NCBI GenBank assembly: GCA_963675595.2
Contig: CAXXLZ010000002.1
Coordinates: 2,112,001 to 2,176,000, forward strand
Direction: 5' to 3'
Source: Thermodesulfobacteriota bacterium
Lineage (GTDB): Bacteria > Desulfobacterota > Desulfarculia > JACQYL01
DNA: 64,000 bases
Shown one piece after another: positions 1-10,829 of this stretch (the stretch's first letter is position 1; the number at the start of each line of letters is the position of its first letter). The notes below the pieces were generated by a model. That model ran no database searches and was not told where the DNA came from. It saw only the letters and a list, made by a program, of their open reading frames with translations. A program made the position numbers and the translations under genes.

Positions 1-755
1 GTAAGGGCGGCGGTGACCCCCAACGCCGAATTGGTGAGGGCGAGCCCGGCCACGTACAAAACGCCGTGCACCACGATCCTTCCTCTCCCGGTCCCCGACC
101 GGCCGCCGAAGTAGGCGGCCGTAATGGGAATCAACGGGTACACGCAGGGAGTCAGGTTCAGGGCCACGCCACCCAGAAAGATGCCCAGTAGTGTCCACAG
201 GGCGGCCAACCCGGTGAAGGAACCGGGGGACAATGGCTGCCCGGCGCCTACCGAAGCCTGCGGCTTCGAACTCGCCGTGGGACGCCCCAGTCCTTGCCAC
301 TCGGGGAATCCCTGAGGATAGCGATATACGTTGCGGTAGCCCAATTGGACGGCCACCCGGGCCGCCGAGTCGCTGCGGACTCAGGTGAGCCCCGCTCAGT
401 AGAACACAAGGGTCCGATCCCGATCTCCTCCCAAGTAGGCTTTCAGTTCCTCTTTCTTCGTGAAACGGGCCCACCAGGTGGGTTCCATGGGGAAGTTGCC
501 CGCACCTTGGATATGTCCGGTTCGGTATTCCCATTCCTGACGCGTATCCACCAGAAGGAGTCCCTGACGGTCCTTGCGGTAGCGTTCCCAGAGTTCATCA
601 GCGTTCATCAGCCGGTAGCCGCCGGCTCGGGCTTCGGCTTCAACGTCCTCCCAAGTTGCCTGTTGTGGAGCCACGGGCCTGCTCGTGTACCACGCGATAC
701 CGGCGGCGGCCGACATGCAAAGAAGTACTATTATGATCTTATTTATCTTTTTCAT
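1..755 (-). CDS. Rhodanese (UxxxxU)-DsbD/CcdA membrane-domain fusion selenoprotein, runs off window start
   Basis: ORF 396-776 stops at TGA after LVFY. The frame continues U-AGLT-U-VRSDSAARVAVQLGYRNVYRYPQGFPEW (rhodanese C-terminal half), then LNLTPCVYPLIP (DsbD motif), with no other stop. TGAs at 396-398 and 381-383; hairpin at 348-366; GGAGA RBS before ATG 755. Confidence 0.85.
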
Positions 756-873
756 GAAGGCATCTCCACTTCGCACCGGTTCCCCGCACCTCCCTTTACT
801 CCGATGCGGAGGATCCCGGGCCGCCTCTAATTCGCCGTCTCGATAGTCGTTCGTGTCGCCCGACCGGACGTTG

Positions 874-2010
874 TCAGCGGCTTCATGTACCGCCCGCGGG
901 ACTGCACGCGGGCGCTTCCGTCGGTTTGTTCCCGAGTTCGGATACCGGTTTGTTTCCGGGTTCCGCCGCCGGTCGCTCGGACGGGGACATGGAATCGTAA
1001 AGCAGCTTGATCCGTGTGGCTCCCACGGTCATGGCCACCATCATGGCTTCCTTCAGTTCCTCTTCACCGGCTCCCAATTCCCTCGCGACCGCAAGGCAAT
1101 AGTTGGCTCATGGATCGCAGCCGGCGGCCAGGGATGCTCCGAGGGCGATCAAGTGCTTGGTCTTCCGGTCCAGAACACCGTCCGCGTAAACGCCTTCAAA
1201 AAAATCCCCATATTTGTCCAATGGATTCATGTTCGACCCCTTGTCCCTCAAAGAATAAACCGGCGGCGACTCCGCCCGGATCAACACGCCCTTGGTCACG
1301 GGGGAGGAATCGAAACCCGTTTCGGACACCAACTCCACATGCGTGAATCCCGACGCCTGAATCATTTCCAGGAAAACCTTTCCCGGTATCGCGCCGCCCA
1401 GTCAATGGTGCCATTGAGATATCCGGCCGGCCTTGTCGGAAGGCGCCTCGCCCACCAGTACCTGATCCGCGATCATCAGGCGCCCTCCGGGCCTCAGGAC
1501 CCGACGTACCTCGCGAAGCGCCGCCTTCTTATCCCCGATCAGGTTGAACACGCCGTTGGAAAGCACTACGTGGAAACTGCGGTCCGGAAAGGGCAGGTCC
1601 GTGGCGGACCCTTCCAGGAAAGTCACGTTTCCAAACCCGGTCAGGTGCCGGTTCCGCTCCGCTCGGTGCAGCATCTCGGGCGTCATGTCCACTCCGGCGA
1701 CACGCCCCTCGGAACCCGTCATGAAGGCGGCCGCCAGCGAATCCACGCCTCCGCCGCAGCCGATGTCCAGCACGGTTTCGCCTTTTTCCACCGGACCCAG
1801 AAAGAAGGGATTCCCCACACCGCAATAAGACGCTGAGACCTCGTCCGGGAGATTGCGAAGGAAATCGGGGTCATATCCCAACAATTCGAGTCCCTTCCTC
1901 CCCGTGGGATATCGAAACATGCCCTCGGGACTTCCGGCCGCCTTCGAATACCTGGCCCGGATTCCCTCATGAATTTTTTCCAGATCGTCGCCGGATAGTG
2001 TTAGTTCCAC
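874..2010 (-). CDS. ArsM-like SAM methyltransferase fused to an AhpD/CMD domain, 3 predicted Sec (378 aa)
   Basis: ORFs 1402-2010, 1108-1365 and 883-1077 share one frame and are separated only by TGA: QWHH-U-LGGA (ArsM W-x-x-C-x-x-GA position), GCDP-U-ANYC (AhpD CxxC) and GGT-U-SR-stop. SAM motif LDIGCGGG and YCGVGNP are present. A hairpin follows each TGA. Confidence 0.8.
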
Positions 2011-2158
2011 CGCTCATCCCCCATCTGTCTTACCAGCTTTGATGCCTCGGGCCGGTGTGTGCCGGTACGCCGCGCACCCCTGCGGCCGCCGTACCGGGTG
2101 CCCACAATGTGGTCCTATTCACGGGGTGTGCCGCAGGAGGACGTCGTCCCCCTGCCCC

Positions 2159-3543
2159 CATAAGCGCTAACTTAAGCCTTTTGTTTTGGTGAGGTTTATG
2201 GTACCGTTGCCGCCAAAGGAGGTGGCAATGGAGCGTCTCGTTTTTTCCGAGGAAATGGAAGACTGGGAAGTTCTCCAGGGTTTTCTTCCCGATGGCTGGC
2301 AATCCAAAGCAAGGGAACTTGGTGCCGTTGTCAGATACCGTAAGTTCGTGGACGCCGAAGGTCTGTTGCGAACGCTTCTGATCCATCTGGCGGAAGGTTG
2401 CTCACTTCGGCTGACGGCGGCCAAAGCCAGGTTCGGCAACATTACGTCGATTTCCGACGTAGCTCTCCTAAAACGACTGAATAAATGCGGAGAGTGGTTT
2501 CGGTGGATGGCCTTAGGGGTCATGGAGAAATGGTTTCGAAAGCTGCCCGCCGTTGTTTTTGGAGAGAATTCACGCATCAGGTTGATCGATGCCTCCACCA
2601 TTCAAGAACCTGGAAGTACCGGAACGACTTGGAGGGTCCATTATTCCATACAATTGCCTTCGCTGCGCTGCGACGAAGTCTATGTAACAGACCCCAAGAT
2701 CGGAGAATCCTTCACCAATTTCAAAGTCCATGGCGGTGAACTTCTTGTAGCGGATAGAGCCTATTGCACACCAAGAGGAATTCACCATGTCATAGACAAC
2801 GGCGGCGACGTCCTGGTTCGAATGAAACACCGTGTCGCCATGGTGGACAAGCAAGGGGAACGATTCCAATTACTCCCTCATCTAAGGACGTTACGTGTAA
2901 ATAAGCTTGGCGACTGGGATGCATTCGTTCCATTTGAACAACGCTTGGTTGCAGGTAGAATCTGTGCCATCAAGAAGAGCAAAGACGCCACTGAAAAAGC
3001 TCGTAAAGCGATAGAAAAAGAGGCGAGGAAAAAAGGTCGCCAAGTTACTCCGGACACCCTCGAAGCGGCGGCCTACATATTTGTTTTCACAACATTGGGC
3101 CGTGAAATCTCGCCCTCTCAGGTCCTCGAGATGTACCGAGGTCGATGGCAAATTGAACTCGCTTTCAAGCGTCTAAAGTCCATTCTCGGTTTAGGCCATC
3201 TTAGAAAGACCGACATCGAAGGAGCCAAGGCCTGGATCCATGGGAAACTACTGGTGGCTTTCTTAGTGGAGGCCATGATCGCCGCAGGCGAATCTTTTTT
3301 TCCCTGGGGATACCCACTCCAAAAAGAACCACCGTAGAAATCGATGCTTCTGGAGAGAGACCATGTTTATGTTACACCTGCTGAAACAAGCCGTGAACCC
3401 TAAACTCGGCTTGGCCGAATGCATTGCCGGCTGGGATAACATATCTTTTTATTTGCGAGAACCGCCAAGGAAACGAGCACTTCAGCGGCTGATTCCTCAG
3501 ACGGAAAGAAGCATAGCAAACAATGCTTAAGTTAGCGCTTATG
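2159..3543 (+). mobile_element. IS4-family insertion sequence, copy 1 (1385 bp)
   Basis: 19-bp terminal IR CATAAGCGCTAACTTAAGC; 11-bp target duplication CCCCCTGCCCC (2148-2158 and 3544-3554). Confidence 0.95.
2228..3337 (+). CDS. IS4-family DDE transposase
   Basis: IDAS, ADRAY and YRGRWQIELAFKRLK (YREK signature); AAGGAGG RBS before ATG 2228. Confidence 0.93.
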   Translation: MERLVFSEEMEDWEVLQGFLPDGWQSKARELGAVVRYRKFVDAEGLLRTLLIHLAEGCSLRLTAAKARFGNITSISDVALLKRLNKCGEWFRWMALGVMEKWFRKLPAVVFGENSRIRLIDASTIQEPGSTGTTWRVHYSIQLPSLRCDEVYVTDPKIGESFTNFKVHGGELLVADRAYCTPRGIHHVIDNGGDVLVRMKHRVAMVDKQGERFQLLPHLRTLRVNKLGDWDAFVPFEQRLVAGRICAIKKSKDATEKARKAIEKEARKKGRQVTPDTLEAAAYIFVFTTLGREISPSQVLEMYRGRWQIELAFKRLKSILGLGHLRKTDIEGAKAWIHGKLLVAFLVEAMIAAGESFFPWGYPLQKEPP

Positions 3544-3555
3544 CCCCCTGCCCCC

Positions 3556-4940
3556 CATAAGCGCTAACTTAAGCCTTTTGTTTTGGTGAGGTTTATGGTA
3601 CCGTTGCCGCCAAAGGAGGTGGCAATGGAGCGTCTCGTTTTTTCCGAGGAAATGGAAGACTGGGAAGTTCTCCAGGGTTTTCTTCCCGATGGCTGGCAAT
3701 CCAAAGCAAGGGAACTTGGTGCCGTTGTCAGATACCGTAAGTTCGTGGACGCCGAAGGTCTGTTGCGAACGCTTCTGATCCATCTGGCGGAAGGTTGCTC
3801 ACTTCGGCTGACGGCGGCCAAAGCCAGGTTCGGCAACATTACGTCGATTTCCGACGTAGCTCTCCTAAAACGACTGAATAAATGCGGAGAGTGGTTTCGG
3901 TGGATGGCCTTAGGGGTCATGGAGAAATGGTTTCGAAAGCTGCCCGCCGTTGTTTTTGGAGAGAATTCACGCATCAGGTTGATCGATGCCTCCACCATTC
4001 AAGAACCTGGAAGTACCGGAACGACTTGGAGGGTCCATTATTCCATACAATTGCCTTCGCTGCGCTGCGACGAAGTCTATGTAACAGACCCCAAGATCGG
4101 AGAATCCTTCACCAATTTCAAAGTCCATGGCGGTGAACTTCTTGTAGCGGATAGAGCCTATTGCACACCAAGAGGAATTCACCATGTCATAGACAACGGC
4201 GGCGACGTCCTGGTTCGAATGAAACACCGTGTCGCCATGGTGGACAAGCAAGGGGAACGATTCCAATTACTCCCTCATCTAAGGACGTTACGTGTAAATA
4301 AGCTTGGCGACTGGGATGCATTCGTTCCATTTGAACAACGCTTGGTTGCAGGTAGAATCTGTGCCATCAAGAAGAGCAAAGACGCCACTGAAAAAGCTCG
4401 TAAAGCGATAGAAAAAGAGGCGAGGAAAAAAGGTCGCCAAGTTACTCCGGACACCCTCGAAGCGGCGGCCTACATATTTGTTTTCACAACATTGGGCCGT
4501 GAAATCTCGCCCTCTCAGGTCCTCGAGATGTACCGAGGTCGATGGCAAATTGAACTCGCTTTCAAGCGTCTAAAGTCCATTCTCGGTTTAGGCCATCTTA
4601 GAAAGACCGACATCGAAGGAGCCAAGGCCTGGATCCATGGGAAACTACTGGTGGCTTTCTTAGTGGAGGCCATGATCGCCGCAGGCGAATCTTTTTTTCC
4701 CTGGGGATACCCACTCCAAAAAGAACCACCGTAGAAATCGATGCTTCTGGAGAGAGACCATGTTTATGTTACACCTGCTGAAACAAGCCGTGAACCCTAA
4801 ACTCGGCTTGGCCGAATGCATTGCCGGCTGGGATAACATATCTTTTTATTTGCGAGAACCGCCAAGGAAACGAGCACTTCAGCGGCTGATTCCTCAGACG
4901 GAAAGAAGCATAGCAAACAATGCTTAAGTTAGCGCTTATG
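3556..4940 (+). mobile_element. IS4-family insertion sequence, copy 2 (appears identical to copy 1)
   Basis: Same 19-bp IRs; 11-bp target duplication CCCCTGCCCCC (3545-3555 and 4941-4951). Confidence 0.95.
3625..4734 (+). CDS. IS4-family DDE transposase
   Basis: Protein identical to copy 1. Confidence 0.93.
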   Translation: MERLVFSEEMEDWEVLQGFLPDGWQSKARELGAVVRYRKFVDAEGLLRTLLIHLAEGCSLRLTAAKARFGNITSISDVALLKRLNKCGEWFRWMALGVMEKWFRKLPAVVFGENSRIRLIDASTIQEPGSTGTTWRVHYSIQLPSLRCDEVYVTDPKIGESFTNFKVHGGELLVADRAYCTPRGIHHVIDNGGDVLVRMKHRVAMVDKQGERFQLLPHLRTLRVNKLGDWDAFVPFEQRLVAGRICAIKKSKDATEKARKAIEKEARKKGRQVTPDTLEAAAYIFVFTTLGREISPSQVLEMYRGRWQIELAFKRLKSILGLGHLRKTDIEGAKAWIHGKLLVAFLVEAMIAAGESFFPWGYPLQKEPP

Positions 4941-4958
4941 CCCCTGCCCCCCTTCTTG

Positions 4959-4990
4959 CTCCTGCGAATCGCGCAGGCGATTCGCAGGAG
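4959..4990. repeat. Perfect palindrome (REP-like)
   Basis: CTCCTGCGAATCGC-gcag-GCGATTCGCAGGAG next to the IS target site. Confidence 0.6.
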
Positions 4991-5081
4991 CGGCATGTGC
5001 CGTCCAACCCGTTAAGACTCTAAAAGTTCTCAAAAAGGGTTCCCTCGGTCCCCCCTTCGAATGCTCACCGCATTGTCCCGA

Positions 5082-5390
5082 TTATCCTTCCATGGCTTCC
5101 GTCACCGCTGCGGAGAGAGCCCCCATTTCGGGAATGTGGTCGAAGGCAAGGCGTCCGTTGATCACCAGCGATGGAACCGGAGGTTTGTCTCCGCATAGCC
5201 GCTTGAGTTCCTCCTGCCTGGCGAGGCCCTCCCGTTCCCCCACGTCCACCACCGTCCACTCCAATCGCCCCTCGGGCAACTCTTCGGCCAATTCCTCCAA
5301 AACGGCCAATGCCAAATCACACAGCATGCATCCTTTCTTCTTGGCCACGATCTCCACGAATACCCGGCGGTTTTCCAGTGCCATAATCAT
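5082..5390 (-). CDS. Thioredoxin/glutaredoxin-like small protein (CxxC)
   Basis: GCMLC motif and VPSLVING cis-Pro motif; start at ATG 5390 or 5384. Confidence 0.75.
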   Translation of the reverse strand: MIMALENRRVFVEIVAKKKGCMLCDLALAVLEELAEELPEGRLEWTVVDVGEREGLARQEELKRLCGDKPPVPSLVINGRLAFDHIPEMGALSAAVTEAMEG

Positions 5391-5512
5391 CCCTACGGAC
5401 AATAACGCCTCTCCGAGGTTGCGTTCTCCCCCATGAGGCCTGGTTTCAAACGGTTCCCGCACATTGCGCCTCGCCGGAAGGCACGCTTTCCCCTCCCGGC
5501 GAGCTGCGGATG

Positions 5513-5767
5513 TCAGTCTTCCTCTTCCACCTTGATCCTTACGTCCGCGTAGCGGGTTCTTTTCTTGATCTGAGTGATCAGTTTTTCGGGATCCGTCTGC
5601 GAAGGATCATATTTCACTTTCGCACGTTTAAACACGGTACTGGTCTCGTACTCCAATACACCGGGTGACTCATCCAGAGCCACTTTGACCATGCCTTCTC
5701 AAGTCAGTCACTCCATCCTGGGGATGTAGAACGCCACTTCATTCACGATCGTATTTTCTCCCGACAC
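5513..5767 (-). CDS. Heavy-metal-associated (CopZ/MerP-like) selenoprotein, MxUxxU (84 aa); missing from the ORF track
   Basis: AGGAGG RBS plus GTG. Translation: ...FYIPRME-U-LT-U-EGMVKVALDESPGVLEYETSTVFKRAKVKYDPSQTDPEKLITQIKK. TGAs at 5708 and 5699 replace both Cys of MxCxxC; hairpin at 5665-5683. Confidence 0.88.
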
Positions 5768-5859
5768 GTCCGCCTCCTTTCCACGGCTTCGCATCCTGAT
5801 TCGGGGCGGTCCCCAAAAGGTCAAGCCTTCGCACATCAAGCCGTTTCGAACCCTGATGC

Positions 5860-6210
5860 TCAGAAGTTGAAGACCTGGGCTTCGGCCGCCAGCTCGATGA
5901 GATGCGGTCCTCCGTCCAGCACCATATTGGAGTAGAATTTGGCCTCGTCCACCTGACGAGCGCGGGCGCAGGGAATTCAGACTCCCACGGGGATCTCGTG
6001 CTCCACCAGGTGGGGGAAATAATCGTTGGGACAATCTCCCGTTTTGGTTTTTTCGTTGAAATCCCGGGTGGAATCCGCCCAAAGCGTTCCGTCGTCGATG
6101 AAGAACAGATTGACCGCATGCCCGGCCGCATGGGCCACTTTGGCCAGCTGGAAACAACGCGTAGCCGAGTCCACCTCGTCCCTGCTCAATACAAACAGAA
6201 ATTTCGCCAA
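5860..6210 (-). CDS. DsrE/F-like sulfur-relay selenoprotein, UxxC (116 aa)
   Basis: VNLFFIDDG DsrE motif; readthrough of TGA 5977 gives GV-U-IP-C-ARARQV...QVFNF; hairpin CTCGTC-AGGTG-GACGAG starts 16 nt downstream. Confidence 0.88.
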
Positions 6211-6264
6211 ACAGCGCCTCCTTTCTTCTCGGCCGAGACTCCGAAGAGGCCGAGGTTCATGGTT

Positions 6265-6738
6265 TCAATCGCTTGGAATGGAAGGAATCTTCCCCTCCGT
6301 TGCGAGCTTCTTGATCAAGAAACGGACTCCCGACCCGGAAACGCCCAGGTCTTCGGCAAGGCGAGCCGGATCGGCGCTTCCCTTGCTGCGCACCAAGGCG
6401 AGAACCTCCTCCTCCAGCTCTTCCAGCCAGTCCTCGAAGAGCACCAAAACTTCGGGCTCCGTAACCGCCTTCAATTGTTCGGATCGGCTCACCTTCTCCA
6501 CCAAACTTCGGCACATCTGCGTTGGATCGACACCTTCGTCCATGCATTCGGCCAGTCAACGGTGCACCATGCCGGCGGTCTTTTCATCGGCTCGCTCCCC
6601 GAAGAGTTCGACGACGAACCTGAGACGCTCCTCTTCTTCCATGAGCGCCAGACGTTTTCCGAGCAGGGAGGAAAGCAGGGGAAGCGCGTCCCGGTCTTCC
6701 ATGGAGTCCACCATCCGTTCCAAAGTCTCCAAATTCAT
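6265..6738 (-). CDS. Uncharacterised selenoprotein (UxxxC) with C-terminal winged-helix-like domain (157 aa)
   Basis: ORFs 6556-6738 and 6265-6543 are in frame across TGA 6556: GMVHR-U-LAE-C-MDEGVDPTQMC; hairpin at 6523-6542 with AGGTG loop. Confidence 0.75.
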
Positions 6739-6758
6739 GGCGTTTTCCCCGTTGCAGG

Positions 6759-7175
6759 TTAGAAGATTTTGGCCGCTTTCCCGAGATCTTCGGCGAGGGA
6801 GGAAAGGCTCGTCAGGATTTCCCCCACACGTTCATCGGCCGACCGGTAATAAATGAAGGGGCCCCGCCGCTCCACTTGCACCAGAAAGGAACGTTTCAGT
6901 TCTTTGAGATGATGCGAAACCAGGGGTTGGGAGAGGCCGAGTTCCTCCACGATTTTCGACACGCTCTTTTCCTTGCGGCTCACACATAGAAGAATTCTCA
7001 GGCGATTCTCATCGGAAAAGCACTTGGACAGGAAGGCGACACCCTGAAGGTTCAGTGAATCCACGAGCCGCGTTGCGGAATCGACGGGCATGGGCGTCTG
7101 ATTTCGAGACGGAGGTTCAAGCATGCGGGTCCGTTCGCAATGAGGGTTCAACGTAATCAACATATCAATATACAT
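6759..7175 (-). CDS. ArsR/SmtB-family transcriptional regulator (true start probably downstream, near 7124 or 7091)
   Basis: FSDENRLRIL...LSQPLVSHHLKELK...ERRGPFIYY HTH signature. Confidence 0.9.
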   Translation of the reverse strand: MYIDMLITLNPHCERTRMLEPPSRNQTPMPVDSATRLVDSLNLQGVAFLSKCFSDENRLRILLCVSRKEKSVSKIVEELGLSQPLVSHHLKELKRSFLVQVERRGPFIYYRSADERVGEILTSLSSLAEDLGKAAKIF

Positions 7176-7205
7176 TTATATATTGATCCCGCATGTCCTT
7201 GTCAA
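7164..7205 (-). promoter_or_regulatory. Sigma70 promoter overlapped by a 9-6-9 palindrome (candidate ArsR operator)
   Basis: TTGACA (7205-7200)-N17-TATATA; ATCAATATA-N6-TATATTGAT at 7164-7187. Confidence 0.65.
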
Positions 7206-7357
7206 GCCTTCTTATGCGCCCCCTTTGAACCACGGCCCTTCAACGACCCTCTCACATCTATCCGCCGATCGTACGAAGTCATTGGTAAGCATTTGAAATC
7301 TCATCGCTATTCCAAATCACACTTTCTCGGGTTCTCGACCCTTCCCAAAAGGAAACT

Positions 7358-7386
7358 TTGACATTCTCGATCTTTTGAGCTATTTT
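7358..7386 (+). promoter_or_regulatory. Sigma70 promoter of the micro-gene
   Basis: TTGACA-N17-TATTTT. Confidence 0.65.
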
Positions 7387-7419
7387 ATATCGGAATCATC
7401 AATAACAGGAGACAAAAAG

Positions 7420-7500
7420 ATGCTTACCCTGAAGTCCGTAGAGAAGAAGGTGGTGCGTCAAGGGAACAAGCCGGCTACGTGACACGGCCCTGAAGCGTAA
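7420..7500 (+). CDS. 26-aa predicted selenopeptide MLTLKSVEKKVVRQGNKPAT-U-HGPEA
   Basis: AGGAGA RBS; in-frame TGA 7480-7482; TAA 7498-7500; hairpin AACCGCC-GGTC-GGCGGTT at 7500-7517; own promoter and terminator. Confidence 0.72.
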
Positions 7501-7578
7501 ACCGCCGGTCGGCGGTTCCAAAACGGGTAAACCCCAACGGACGAGCTTCAAACCATGGACCCCGTTCCGTCGGGACCC

Positions 7579-7613
7579 AAAAAAACCCGGGATCGCTCCC
7601 GGGTTTCTTGTTT
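7579..7613. terminator. Probable bidirectional intrinsic terminator
   Basis: A-run, AAACCCGGGA-TCGC-TCCCGGGTTT, then T-rich tract, between convergent genes. Confidence 0.75.
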
Positions 7614-7638
7614 CTCAATCCCGATGCTTCACGCGCGG

Positions 7639-9360
7639 TCAATATGGACGCGACGATTCCCCCGTTTTGTCCCGCACCTCCATGGACCCGACCGCATAGA
7701 GCCGTAACGCTCCCGTCACGCCTTTAACATTCGCCTCAAAGGGCCGCAGGACTTTCACATAGTCCCGCACCGACTCCAGAACGGCCTCCGACACCACCAC
7801 TTCACCCTCCCGGGCTTCGGTTTGGATCCGCTGAGTCAGGTTCACGGCGGCGCCCACAATGCCGTATTTCGCGCGAATCTCGGAACCCACATTCCCCACG
7901 ATCACCTCACCGGTGTGCACCCCGATTCCCATGCTCAGGCTCGGCAGGCCCGGGACCTTCTCCAATTCGTTCATCATGTCCAAGGCAACCTGCATATCCA
8001 ACGCGCATCTCACCGCATCGAGGCTTCTGTCCTCCGGAACGGCGTCCAACGGATCGAAAAACACCAGCATGGCGTCCCCGATAAAATCCACGATAATGCC
8101 TTCATGTGAACGGACCACCTGGATCATTCTCGAATAATACCGGTTCAGTACTGTGATCACCGTTTCCGGCTCCATTCGCTCGCACAACGCGGTAAATCCC
8201 CTGAGGTCGGACATCAAAATAAACACTCTGCGTTTCTCTCCGCCCAACCGGGTGGATTCCGGCCGCCGCAGGAGCTTTTCGGCGACTTCACGATCCATGT
8301 AGCGGCCGAAAGTCGTTCGTATGAACTCCTGTTGCCTCAAAGACTCCACCATGGCATTGAAGCCGGCGGCCAGCCGTCCCACCTCATCGGAAGTTCGGAC
8401 CTTCACGGTTTCGCCGTAATCGCCCTCGGCCACCCGTTCCGCAGCCAGAGCGATCTCCCGAATGGAGCGCACGGTTCGAGAGGACACATATTGGATCAGA
8501 AACAGCACCATCCCGATACACAACGCGCCCAAGAGCCCGAAGTAGTTGCGAAAACGTATGATGGGCTTGAGAATCTCGTCGCCCTGCGCGAAGACCACGA
8601 CGCTCCAGGGCGCCTGCTTGAGGCGAAAGAAGCCGGCCACTTCTTCCGGAGGATGCCCTTCCCCGAAGATCGTACCGGAAGGCCTCTCTTTCATCGCCTG
8701 AAGCACCCGGGCTTCCAATGGGCTGCCGCTTCCTCCCAGCACTCGCCTTCCCGAATCTCCGGACGAAGTGTGAGCCAGGTAGCGCCCGGAAGCGTCCACC
8801 AAGCAGCCCTTCACTCCCTGCCACCAACTGCTCGCCACCAGATCGGCAATCAGATGATGCAGTTGAACGGTCACAAGAACTCTGCCGACGATGCGTCTCT
8901 GTTCGTCCAGCAACTCGGATACGAGTGTCACGCTTTCACTGCCCGTATCCGGATCCAACTCGGGAGGAGTCACCACCGACACGCGATCCTGCGTAGACAT
9001 CATCCGTCCGCCCATGTGGCGGCCGCCGAAGGCGAACATGGAAGACTCATTAGACCATTCCAGGTCCACGCTTTGAACGCCGTCCAGACTCCTGAGCTCC
9101 TCCAGCACGTGTTCTTGAGCCCTCAATCCTCCGCCCACCGGGATTCGGCGAAGCAGGGAAAGCCACTGAACGGGTTCCTCCAGACGCATGTCGACCTGAT
9201 GGGCGGCCCACCCCAGCTTGAGGATGGCGGCTTCCTTCCACTGATCCAACATGATGTTCCGCGCATAGATGAATCCCACGAATCCCGTCAGGAAAAGAAG
9301 CAGCGCCACCGGGCACAGGACCCAGATCATCAATCGCCTGCGTAGGCTTGAGGCTTTCAA
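7639..9360 (-). CDS. Class III adenylate/guanylate cyclase with periplasmic Cache-like and HAMP domains
   Basis: Two TM helices; HAMP (DEVGRLAAGFN); MSDLRGFT, FIGDAML, GIGVHTG, GAAVNLTQR. Confidence 0.9.
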   Translation of the reverse strand: MKASSLRRRLMIWVLCPVALLLFLTGFVGFIYARNIMLDQWKEAAILKLGWAAHQVDMRLEEPVQWLSLLRRIPVGGGLRAQEHVLEELRSLDGVQSVDLEWSNESSMFAFGGRHMGGRMMSTQDRVSVVTPPELDPDTGSESVTLVSELLDEQRRIVGRVLVTVQLHHLIADLVASSWWQGVKGCLVDASGRYLAHTSSGDSGRRVLGGSGSPLEARVLQAMKERPSGTIFGEGHPPEEVAGFFRLKQAPWSVVVFAQGDEILKPIIRFRNYFGLLGALCIGMVLFLIQYVSSRTVRSIREIALAAERVAEGDYGETVKVRTSDEVGRLAAGFNAMVESLRQQEFIRTTFGRYMDREVAEKLLRRPESTRLGGEKRRVFILMSDLRGFTALCERMEPETVITVLNRYYSRMIQVVRSHEGIIVDFIGDAMLVFFDPLDAVPEDRSLDAVRCALDMQVALDMMNELEKVPGLPSLSMGIGVHTGEVIVGNVGSEIRAKYGIVGAAVNLTQRIQTEAREGEVVVSEAVLESVRDYVKVLRPFEANVKGVTGALRLYAVGSMEVRDKTGESSRPY

Positions 9361-9458
9361 ATTCTACCCTCGCTTCGGGGTCGTACGGGCGCCGACGACG
9401 GTTCGCCCATTGTCTAAAGAACCCTCCACCAACTTCCAAGCCTGTTGGAAACGGCCGG

Positions 9459-10829
9459 TTACATGGCTCCGTATTTCTTGAGCTTTTTGTGCAGGGTACG
9501 ACGGGTAATACCCAAGCGCCTGGCGGTTTCGCTCTTGTTTCCTCCACTCTCTTCCAGAGTTCGGAGGATGGCTTCCTTCTCCAGCTCATCCAAAGGCAGA
9601 TCGCCGGTCGGCTGGAGTATGGTTTTATCGGGAACCTCGGCTTCCTCCCGAAGGGACAAAGGGAGATCGTCCTCGCCGATGTGTTCGCCCCTGCAAAGCA
9701 CCACGCCTCGCTCCACGGCGTTCATCAGTTCCCTCACGTTTCCCGGCCAGGCATATCGAAGCATGAGGTCCATGGCTCGAGGGGTAAACCCTCGGATGTT
9801 TTTCTTGTTCTTCTCGGCGAACCGGTCCAGAAAATGGCGACACAGTAACGGAATATCCTCCTGCCGTTCTCTCAAGGGCGGCACCCGCAAAGAAACCACG
9901 TTCAGACGGTAATAAAGGTCCTCTCGAAAATTTCCTTTCCCGATCTCCTCGGCAAGGTCCCGATTGGTGGCGGACAGAACCCGGACATCCACCTCCAACA
10001 CCTCGTCTCCGCCCACCCTCTGGACTCTTCTCTCCTGAAGCACCCGCAATAGTTTGGCCTGCATGGCCATGGAAGTCTCACCGATTTCGTCCAGAAAAAG
10101 CGTCCCGCCGTGGGCCTGCCGAAAGCGTCCTTCTCTGCGCCGATCGGCTCCGGTGAAGGCTCCCTTTTCGTGACCGAAAAGCTCGGATTCCAGCAAAGTC
10201 TCGGTGATGGCGGCGCAATTGAACGTTACAAAGGGCTTTTCCCGTCTAGGGCTGTTATAATGAATGGCGCCCGCGATAAGTTCCTTTCCCGTTCCGGACT
10301 CCCCGGTAATCAGCACGCCCGCTTCCGTGGGGGCCACCATGGCCACGGTTTCCAAGAGGTCCAGCATGACCTTGCTTCGCCCCACGATGTTCACCAGATC
10401 GAAGGTCTCTCCCAAACGCTTCCGAAGCGCGAGATTTTCTTGTTTGAGCCGGCTGTGATCCGTGGCCCTTTCGATGGCCAGTCGCAGTTCATCGAAATCC
10501 AGCGGTTTGGTCAGATAATCGTAAGCTCCCTTGCGCAGAGCATCCACGGCGGTTTCAACGGAAGAATAAGCCGTCATAATGAGCACCGGAAGAGAGGGAT
10601 TGAACTTCTTCACCTCCTCCAAGGCTTCGAGGCCGGACATGCGGACCATACGGACATCCATGAGAACCAGATCGAAGAATTCCTCATGGACCTTCTCCAC
10701 GGCCGCGGAACCGTCGTCCGCCTCCACGACTTCGTGGCCCCAGCCCCCCAGGAGTGTTCGGAGCATGGTCCGATGCCCTCGGTCGTCATCCACCACCAAT
10801 ATTTTTACCCGACTGGACAAATCGATCAC
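9459..10829 (-). CDS. zraR: Sigma54-dependent response regulator (ZraR-like)
   Basis: REC domain, GESGTGKE, GAFTGA, Fis-type HTH; the ORF track start at 11165 is over-extended. Confidence 0.85.
   Translation of the reverse strand: MIDLSSRVKILVVDDDRGHRTMLRTLLGGWGHEVVEADDGSAAVEKVHEEFFDLVLMDVRMVRMSGLEALEEVKKFNPSLPVLIMTAYSSVETAVDALRKGAYDYLTKPLDFDELRLAIERATDHSRLKQENLALRKRLGETFDLVNIVGRSKVMLDLLETVAMVAPTEAGVLITGESGTGKELIAGAIHYNSPRREKPFVTFNCAAITETLLESELFGHEKGAFTGADRRREGRFRQAHGGTLFLDEIGETSMAMQAKLLRVLQERRVQRVGGDEVLEVDVRVLSATNRDLAEEIGKGNFREDLYYRLNVVSLRVPPLRERQEDIPLLCRHFLDRFAEKNKKNIRGFTPRAMDLMLRYAWPGNVRELMNAVERGVVLCRGEHIGEDDLPLSLREEAEVPDKTILQPTGDLPLDELEKEAILRTLEESGGNKSETARRLGITRRTLHKKLKKYGAM

Follow-up and report, generated by a model that had tools for sequence, protein, structure and literature searches.

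A probable enlarged copy of the Tso selenoprotein locus in a Thermodesulfobacteriota bacterium, with a DsrE-HMA-ArsM/AhpD gene module between tsoA and tsoB

We characterized a cluster of genes interrupted by in-frame TGA codons at the left end of a 64,000-nucleotide (nt) stretch of a Thermodesulfobacteriota genome (hereafter, the window; G000:C2:2112001-2176000), taking the 12 kb before the window start into the analysis as well. The cluster is very probably the known Tso ("three selenoprotein operon") locus in an enlarged form specific to this lineage, in which the UGA codons encode selenocysteine (Sec), the genes are controlled by the regulator TsoR, the selenols act on a soft metal(loid) or chalcogen substrate, a further gene module has been placed between tsoA and tsoB, and a pair of insertion sequences (ISs) arrived recently. 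The original prediction had presented the cluster as a selenoprotein island that was not a described unit. That claim was wrong, since Tso is already catalogued in NCBIfam and in a 2026 review (PMC13188914) that credits the operon to Haft and Tolstoy 2025 (mSystems 10:e0141724). The review also tabulates TsoA, TsoB, TsoC, TsoX, TsoY, an ArsM/AhpD selenoprotein with three Sec residues, a UxxU metal-binding protein, and DsrE-like selenoproteins. The composite arrangement described here may also already stand in Haft and Tolstoy 2025 or its supplements.

All four Tso-defining genes are present, and each exceeds the curated cutoff of its NCBIfam model, namely, TsoR (NF045707; 144.2 bits, cutoff 115), TsoA (NF045695; 195.2 bits, cutoff 170), full-length TsoB (NF045694 seleno_TsoB; 954.8 bits, cutoff 805, the part inside the window alone giving E = 3e-110), and TsoC (NF045708; 150.9 bits, cutoff 45). 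Sec falls at the family motif positions, with the motifs LULAxC (TsoA), UxxxxU (TsoB), and NEPxGxxU (TsoC) appearing here as R-U-L-A-E-C, U-A-G-L-T-U, and N-E-P-N-G-R-P-U. The minus-strand order is tsoR, tsoA (1 Sec codon), a DsrE-like gene (1), an HMA-domain gene (2), a thioredoxin (Trx)-like gene in Cys form, two IS copies, an ArsM-like/AhpD gene (3), tsoB (2), a GcvH-related gene, and tsoC (1). This order agrees with the one first proposed, including the ArsR-type gene at the head and two identical IS copies in mid-cluster. The proposed limits were too narrow, given that tsoB runs about 1.0 kb beyond the window start and is followed by the GcvH-related gene (NF045810, 204 bits) and tsoC, both outside the window. 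With tsoC included and a divergent 26-codon open reading frame (ORF) left aside, the operon holds ten Sec codons in six genes. Pfam domains along the cluster are Rhodanese and DsbD_TM, an S-adenosylmethionine-dependent methyltransferase and CMD (AhpD-like), HMA, DsrE, HTH_24 at the C terminus of the U-L-A-E-C protein, an ArsR-type HTH_5 in the regulator, and a DDE transposase in both repeated ORFs. The features are as follows.

1-755, minus: 5' part of tsoB, encoding a signal-anchor-like N terminus, a rhodanese domain with Sec120 (TGA 396-398) and Sec125 (TGA 381-383), and the start of a DsbD-like membrane domain
874-2010, minus: ArsM-like methyltransferase/AhpD (CMD) gene with Sec203 (TGA 1402-1404), Sec301 (TGA 1108-1110, C-D-P-U), and Sec376 (TGA 883-885); stop codon TGA 874-876
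2159-3543, plus: IS4-family copy 1, 1,385 bp, with 22-nt terminal inverted repeats and a transposase gene at 2186-3337
3556-4940, plus: IS4-family copy 2, 12 nt from copy 1, repeating the flanking target CCCC(C)TGCCCC
5082-5390, minus: Trx/glutaredoxin-like gene, Cys form (G-C-M-L-C), with weak Pfam Glrx-like and Glutaredoxin matches
5513-5767, minus: HMA-domain selenoprotein gene, 84 codons from GTG 5767 with GGAGG 5 nt upstream; M-E-U-L-T-U (TGA 5708-5710 and 5699-5701)
5860-6210, minus: DsrE-like selenoprotein gene with Sec78 (TGA 5977-5979, U-I-P-C); Pfam DsrE 62.9 bits
6265-6738, minus: tsoA, LULAxC-motif selenoprotein gene with Sec61 (TGA 6556-6558)
6759-7175, minus: tsoR, ArsR/SmtB-type regulator gene
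7162-7187: AT-rich palindrome ATCAATATA-n6-TATATTGAT, candidate TsoR operator
7358-7606, plus: small divergent unit with a promoter-like site (7358-7386), AGGAG (7408-7412), an ORF (7420-7500) with TGA 7480, a hairpin (7500-7517), and a terminator-like hairpin (7583-7606)

For comparison, we took up to 20 kb around each of 35 loci with TsoA-family matches in the phylum and searched these regions by tblastn with the window proteins. The GcvH-related gene lies between tsoB and tsoC in 3 of these 35 loci, as it does here, and the presence of further selenoprotein genes adjoining the operon also agrees with what PMC13188914 says of Tso. Where the locus departs from Tso elsewhere is in the spacing of tsoA and tsoB. 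The two genes are neighbors, less than 400 nt apart with nothing inserted, in 23 of the 23 other loci that have both; here, the order and strand of tsoR-tsoA-tsoB-(gcvH-related)-tsoC are kept while 5.5 kb (four genes and two IS copies) parts tsoA from tsoB. That contiguity is a defining feature of Tso is drawn from those 23 loci and is not a published rule. The DsrE-HMA-Trx-ArsM/AhpD module is the local oddity.

A TsoX gene (NF045809, 109.4 bits, cutoff 52; H-S-G-N-A-R-U-I-A-C) lies by itself, some 360 kb away from the Tso locus (G000:C2:2475728-2475973; L258 1492-1752, minus strand), with a transposase-like ORF as its neighbor. No TsoY gene was detected in the genome.

Selenocysteine decoding of the in-frame UGA codons

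The ten TGA coordinates first given for the cluster are all correct, nine of them reading TCA on the plus strand and the one at 7480 reading TGA there. Under translation table 11, the cluster is a chain of short ORFs broken at TGAs, and these fragments merge into the predicted proteins once TGA is translated through. Of the ten Sec codons in six genes that had been proposed, nine codons in five genes are well supported; the tenth, in the peptide with TGA 7480, has local signals and is without a homologue. The genome encodes SelA (621 bits), SelB (404 bits), SelD (386 bits), and a tRNA-Sec (77 bits; anticodon tca), and a short hairpin, usually with a GGU loop, follows each UGA, so we take these codons to be read as Sec. 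The selD gene (G000:C2:3335545-3336462) itself has one in-frame TGA, and SelD is therefore a selenoprotein in this genome.

Conservation of the TGAs is consistent with this decoding. Among 46 TsoA-family matches in 401 genomes of the phylum, 41 have exactly one TGA, and the five without it are weak, partial matches beginning at model position 44 or later. In the 35 comparison loci, TGA occupies the TsoA U61 position in 38 of 38 other genes, the TsoB U120 and U125 positions in 23 of 23 homologues (both are invariant in all 24 aligned tsoB genes), and the TsoC U16 position in 26 of 26. More generally, homologues of the cluster proteins have Cys or TGA at the same columns, never Trp, and the sequence past the TGAs is conserved. 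The original prediction had named missing Sec machinery, TGAs aligned with Trp or other non-Cys residues, and loss of conservation past the TGAs as grounds for its refutation, and none of the three holds.

The hairpins that could act as Sec insertion sequence (SECIS) elements were assessed with a rule requiring at least five uninterrupted pairs, a loop of 4 to 6 nt containing GGU, and a start 10 to 26 nt after the U of UGA; these limits are our own choice, based on the bacterial SECIS literature. Among all TGA triplets of the genome, 1,877 of 213,288 (0.88%) pass. Seven of the 11 candidate sites do so (TsoB U125, ArsM U203, AhpD U301, tail U376, DsrE U78, TsoC U16, and U21 of the small divergent ORF), as against neither of two true-stop controls. 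The sites missed by the rule are TsoA, which has a bulged hairpin with the loop AGGUG; both HMA UGAs, which share a 7-bp hairpin with the loop UGGAU; and TsoB U120, which shares the U125 hairpin. The hairpins in the window are as follows.

348-366, minus: tsoB SECIS-like hairpin with a 7-bp stem and loop CGGGU, beginning 17 nt past the second UGA; passes the rule
857-870, 1081-1096, and 1368-1386, minus: SECIS-like hairpins of the ArsM/AhpD gene with GGU loops; pass the rule
5665-5683, minus: HMA hairpin, 7 bp, loop UGGAU
5944-5960, minus: DsrE hairpin, loop AGGUG
6524-6541, minus: tsoA bulged hairpin, loop AGGUG

RNAalifold alignments showed compensatory changes without broken pairs in two of these. 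In the TsoB hairpin (24 sequences), pair 39-51 occurs as GC in 16 sequences, AU in 6, and CG in 2, and pair 42-48 occurs as CG in 23 and UA in 1; in the TsoA hairpin (39 sequences), pair 23-36 occurs as AU in 25, GC in 13, and GU in 1. This covariation supports candidate SECIS elements in tsoA and tsoB. Rfam returned no SECIS or other RNA family, either in a permissive scan of positions 1-9500 or in a gathering scan of the whole window, and the global minimum free energies of the 63-nt stretches after each UGA had z scores from -1.9 to +0.25. Other TGA sites of the window followed by SECIS-like hairpins (18039, 28524, 28534, 38978, and 61873) were rejected, as their out-of-frame translations are rich in Arg, Pro, and Gly.

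We give practically no credence to the view that translation simply ends at the TGAs and that the genes are pseudogenes or a series of separate small ORFs. It would account for the table 11 ORF listing, which splits the genes at TGAs, and for a set of 5.8 billion proteins yielding only a 59-residue distal fragment of the HMA gene. It is at odds with TGAs fixed at the same columns in dozens of genomes with both flanks conserved, with the TGA/Cys pairing, with the covarying hairpins, and with the complete Sec machinery. Among the 14 coding differences listed between the window and its IS-free relatives (see below), 10 are synonymous and 4 nonsynonymous, a split that points to purifying selection. 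A gene caller that has no selenoprotein models will break up every one of these genes. The expectation in the original prediction that standard annotation would call them pseudogenes may be outdated at NCBI, where NCBIfam holds curated "exception" models for these selenoproteins. Two TGAs elsewhere in the genome, at G000:C1:1696030 (plus) and G000:C2:3312675 (minus), have a strong Shine-Dalgarno sequence and ATG upstream, a SECIS-like hairpin, and open frames of 237 and 148 codons downstream, respectively; they may belong to other selenoprotein genes with N-terminal Sec.

Genes and insertion sequences between tsoA and tsoB

The DsrE-like protein matches the DsrE fold and has U-I-P-C at the Cys position of the family, like the UxxC DsrE-like selenoprotein listed in PMC13188914. 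Sec and Cys forms are interchangeable among its orthologues at 62 to 77% identity: at position 78, one set of 30 loci divides into 14 with TGA and 16 with Cys, and a set of 80 named Desulfobacterota-type loci into 55 with TGA and 25 with Cys. Unlike its counterparts elsewhere, the gene is embedded in a Tso operon. Most of the 80 loci show no other gene of the cluster in flanks of up to 8 kb per side, and only one (L179) also places DsrE(U) beside Tso genes, there after tsoB-tsoC-gcvH. The genes around DsrE(U) in Desulfacinum infernum (L224) offered no clue to function.

The HMA protein (Pfam HMA, 40.2 bits) resembles HMA domains of the UxxU (NF041115) and MerP/CopZ types in fold, with Sec at both metal-ligating positions: both U residues are column-matched to the metal-ligating Cys residues of M-T-C-x-x-C in solved ATP7B and CopA domains. 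It differs from the NF041115 family (UxxU_metal_bind) in scoring 39.3 bits, under the cutoff of 95, and in standing without a close homologue; it is not a member. In 300 other genomes of the phylum, there was no close homologue and there were 6 distant Cys-type HMA domains; the 59-residue match in the 5.8-billion-protein set was the window's own fragment. The Trx-like protein scores 51.9 bits against NF047660 (HUIPC_Trx; cutoff 105) and has G-C-M-L-C in place of H-U/C-I-P-C, which leaves it outside that family. Its orthologues (61 to 68% identity) follow DsrE(U) in three loci (L093, L096, and L106).

A DsrE(U)-(Trx)-ArsM/AhpD(UU) string occurs separately from Tso in L096, L106, L199, L210, and L220, and in L210 it adjoins DUF2284, thioredoxin, and hybrid-cluster protein genes. 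Because the module stands apart from Tso elsewhere, this lineage appears to have nested one catalogued module inside another. A looser link to Tso is seen in L068, where an ArsM-type selenoprotein lies beside Tso genes; the DsrE(U) gene of L179 is another.

The ArsM-like/AhpD protein scores 515.7 bits against NF041537 (ArsM_AhpD_UU; cutoff 510), a narrow margin, with two TGAs inside the model range. Full-length fusions of this type number four in 301 genomes, each with two TGAs inside the model. The protein resembles the catalogued ArsM/AhpD selenoprotein in its two-domain architecture, with U-x-x-G at the ArsM catalytic Cys and C-x-x-U in the AhpD domain, and in a third Sec in a C-terminal tail, PMC13188914 listing three Sec residues. 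In solved arsenite methyltransferases, the residue at the U203 column is the Cys of "geCLGGAl". The end of the NCBIfam model lies about 35 residues before TGA 883; the reading of this TGA as the true stop was considered and rejected on the evidence of the tail, which here ends U-S-R before the TGA stop. Three of the four full-length fusions end in U-x-x-TGA (U-S-R here, U-D-N and U-P-R elsewhere). The orthologues in L199 and L220 have the common tail C-T-A-U-P-T-K/Q-S-S-S-G-U, and L210 has the variant F-T-U-A-T-K-S-G-S-G-U; the sequence after the tail TGA is therefore conserved. U376 aligns with a Cys in L199. Given these tails, this Cys, and the three Sec residues in the review, we accept three Sec residues and the stop at TGA 874-876.

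The two IS copies are identical and have 12 further full-length and 5 partial matches in the genome at 99.8 to 100% identity. Assignment to the IS4 family follows from the DDE transposase (NF033592 transpos_IS4_1, 139.4 bits, cutoff 115), the 22-nt inverted repeats, and a target of about 10 to 12 nt repeated at both ends and between the copies. The element is apparently active, and copy 2 apparently inserted into the target duplication of copy 1, the target being seen three times. In two public runs with other organism labels (X3 and X4), contigs join position 2148 to position 4941, skipping 2,792 nt with 11 nt shared at the joint, and otherwise keep the same composite gene order with the IS absent. 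The identity of the copies, the triplicated target, and the IS-free joint in these runs indicate that the IS pair is recent and strain specific. The contig of run X4 lists 15 substitutions within 44 nt (812-855) just past the tail hairpin of the ArsM/AhpD gene (857-870), with no listed change in the U-S-R-stop codons or in the hairpin itself. With its transposase genes antisense to the operon, the IS pair probably uncouples arsM/ahpD-tsoB-gcvH-tsoC from the tsoR promoter. The stretch that separates the Trx-like gene from the IS target contains a perfect inverted repeat with 15-bp arms (GCTCCTGCGAATCGC / GCGATTCGCAGGAGC; 4958-4991), with no U-run after it.

Regulation, possible function, and alternative readings

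TsoR probably starts at ATG 7091 rather than at the start of the long ORF (7175), since homologues align from residues 37-46. The AT-rich palindrome fits a TsoR operator, with binding predicted from the sequence pattern: a related motif, ATATAAA-n2-8-TTTATAT (up to two mismatches), lies upstream of tsoR in 24 of 35 regions and in 96 of 4,397 control windows from the same loci, some of which overlap the same sites. As an ArsR/SmtB-type repressor, TsoR would control the operon through this palindrome. In TsoA, U61 and C65 are invariant and C76 is near-invariant, and the C-terminal domain is winged-helix-like (Pfam HTH_24, 24.1 bits; weak PDB matches to N-terminal domains of Lrp/AsnC, E values of 0.04 to 0.5). 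TsoA would thus present a Sec/Cys/Cys site always paired with TsoR. The tsoR-tsoA pair (see L062, L063, and L079) is tandem-duplicated in some genomes and occurs without tsoB or tsoC in the fetched span in others, and for this reason it looks like the conserved core. Since TsoR has no conserved Cys and TsoA always follows it, carrying U61/C65/C76 and the winged-helix-like segment, TsoA may be the ligand-binding partner of TsoR; across the family, TsoA could be the Sec-bearing sensor of the system.

The full-length tsoB gene has 594 codons, and the part beyond the window encodes a DsbD-like membrane region and a W-C-S-P-C thioredoxin domain. TsoB resembles DsbD/CcdA conduits in its membrane region and its C-terminal thioredoxin domain (W-C-S-P-C), which score 261 bits against DsbD; it differs in scoring under the DsbD cutoff (330) and in having a two-Sec rhodanese domain in place of the N-terminal DsbD-alpha. 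Solved rhodaneses have their catalytic Cys at the U120 column, and the active-site loop that holds U125 exceeds theirs by two residues. This architecture suggests that reducing equivalents are imported for an exported selenol site, with TsoB as a DsbD-type membrane conduit that would pass reducing power to its exported thioredoxin domain and di-Sec rhodanese domain. In TsoC, DsrE, HMA, and ArsM-like/AhpD, the selenols would then serve as strong ligands or nucleophiles toward a substrate that is a soft metal(loid) or a chalcogen.

Downstream of tsoC (G000:C2:2101100-2111750; L023 1106-9748, minus strand), there are genes for a second ArsR/SmtB regulator, an ArsP_1 permease, an ArsE-family thioredoxin-like protein, a DGC-domain protein, and an iron-sulfur protein, followed by those for ACR3 (374.9 bits, cutoff 282.8), a thioredoxin, a DsbD-TM-like ORF, a second ArsE-like fusion, and a flavoprotein resembling coenzyme A-disulfide reductase. 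The ArsP_1 permease is distantly related to the SaoE/SO_0444 efflux proteins (SaoE, 100.5 bits, cutoff 325). With the ArsR/SmtB regulator, the ArsM-like domain, the HMA domain, and the ACR3/ArsP/ArsE-like set downstream, the metal(loid) setting proposed at the outset is plausible; the co-regulated scheme of capture, methylation, and reduction proposed with it stays a hypothesis. As a multi-selenoprotein operon tied to metal(loid) chemistry, the locus resembles the Sec-assisted organometallic (SAO) system (Haft and Gwadz 2023, as cited in PMC13188914); unlike SAO, it has no gene for a Sao family member that reaches its cutoff.

Two other readings need to be set against that of an enlarged Tso operon acting on a soft metal(loid) or chalcogen. 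One treats the cluster as two or three adjacent independent units (tsoR-tsoA; DsrE-HMA-Trx, with or without ArsM/AhpD; and tsoB-gcvH-tsoC), which we regard as possible but somewhat unlikely. It draws on the occurrence of the DsrE(U)-Trx-ArsM/AhpD module alone elsewhere, on the lack of other cluster genes in the fetched flanks of most DsrE(U) orthologues, on tsoR-tsoA pairs without tsoB or tsoC within the fetched span at several loci, and on the 2.8 kb of IS DNA with antisense transposases that, together with a spacer of about 290 nt and its 15-bp-arm hairpin (4958-4991), parts Trx from ArsM/AhpD. Against it stand the single strand throughout, the short gaps (20 to 65 nt) within tsoR-tsoA-DsrE-HMA-Trx, the IS-free composite order on single contigs of the two other runs, and the ArsM-type selenoprotein (L068) or DsrE(U) (L179) genes beside Tso genes in other genomes. 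The other reading concerns the substrate and is marginally the stronger of the two, though still rather less likely than not: the system would handle sulfur/selenium species or oxidative/thiol stress, through persulfide/selenide trafficking or peroxide reduction, instead of arsenic or heavy metals. Every one of the rhodanese, DsrE/TusD-like, AhpD/CMD, thioredoxin-fold, and DsbD-like domains has a sulfur-transfer or redox fold, the ArsM-like domain is without one canonical arsenite-binding Cys, and TsoR is related to the sulfite sensor BigR (41.8 bits). The HMA domain, the ArsR/SmtB regulator, the neighboring ACR3, ArsP_1, and ArsE-family genes, and the best PDB relatives of the methyltransferase, which are arsenite methyltransferases, point the other way.

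Several points weigh against the enlarged-operon reading itself or against parts of it. The functions proposed are taken purely from domain names. TsoR is without a conserved Cys, with C52 shared by 2 and C64 by 11 of 36 homologues. Four of the 11 candidate Sec sites fail the strict hairpin rule, and Sec in the HMA protein, which has no close relative, is predicted from a domain alignment and from a hairpin with UGGAU in place of a GGU loop. In this strain, the IS pair and the spacer of about 290 nt argue against a single transcript. As to the methyltransferase, specific cysteines of ArsM enzymes bind As(III). Gly153 of the ArsM-like domain (codon 1552-1554) aligns with one of the conserved ones, that of "isnCvinl", and the Cys of "GCGNP" sits two residues out of place; the substrate may therefore be something other than arsenite. 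Unlike canonical ArsM, the protein has thus one As(III)-binding Cys replaced by Gly and one Cys shifted by two, with the AhpD domain and a Sec tail added; of the As(III)-binding Cys positions in solved ArsM that define canonical ArsM/AS3MT, one, U203, matches. Throughout the ArsM/AhpD selenoprotein group, Gly (S-N-G-V) takes the place of the conserved Cys (S-N-C-V) of solved arsenite methyltransferases, and the name "arsenite methyltransferase" may therefore misdescribe the group's substrate.

On the enlarged-operon reading, two catalogued modules (Tso and DsrE-Trx-ArsM/AhpD) stand in one string beside a gene set of the arsenic-resistance type. The association is a usable hint to the function of Tso, suggesting a soft metal(loid) or chalcogen substrate, selenols, and reducing power imported through TsoB. 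The IS-free and IS-split alleles form a natural pair for asking whether expression of the distal genes requires the tsoR promoter.

The divergent 26-codon open reading frame

The small ORF divergent from tsoR (MLTLKSVEKKVVRQGNKPAT-U-HGPEA) was predicted to be a Sec-containing peptide. If it were a genuine free-standing orphan selenopeptide gene, with its own promoter, a SECIS element just past its stop, and its own terminator, it would be among the shortest selenoprotein genes known and would lie beside the operator of a selenoprotein operon. We consider this unlikely. The ORF is preceded by a promoter-like site with 10 of 12 matches (5 such sites occur in 7.7 kb, where 2.6 are expected) and by AGGAG 8 nt before the ATG. 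A perfect 7-bp GC-rich hairpin begins 20 nt past the UGA, with a GGUC loop identical to that of the AhpD and C-terminal hairpins, and a terminator-like hairpin follows 65 nt further on. The hairpin is not a repeated element. Of the 872 TGAs in the genome that have an ATG and a strong Shine-Dalgarno sequence 10 to 60 codons ahead, only 15 are followed by such a hairpin, with a stem of at least 7 bp in just 3; at least 3 of the 15 are known Sec sites (TsoX, TsoC, and ArsM U203). The place of the ORF beside a selenoprotein operon also keeps it a candidate. Set against these signals, chance alone should let about 7.7 of the 872 sites pass, enough to account for all 6 of those with a short extension after the TGA, the small ORF included, and the peptide has only five residues beyond its U. 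Searches of its own genome and of the 35 Tso loci (short-query tblastn and inspection of divergent ORFs upstream of tsoR) gave no homologue, nor did a search of 400 genomes of the phylum (best E value, 0.08; the top matches were judged by eye to be noise), and a degenerate exact-peptide pattern gave 0 matches in metagenome contigs. A gene for a membrane HAMP-domain adenylate/guanylate cyclase (7639-9360, minus strand) converges on the small ORF and shares with it the bidirectional terminator-like hairpin at 7583-7606.

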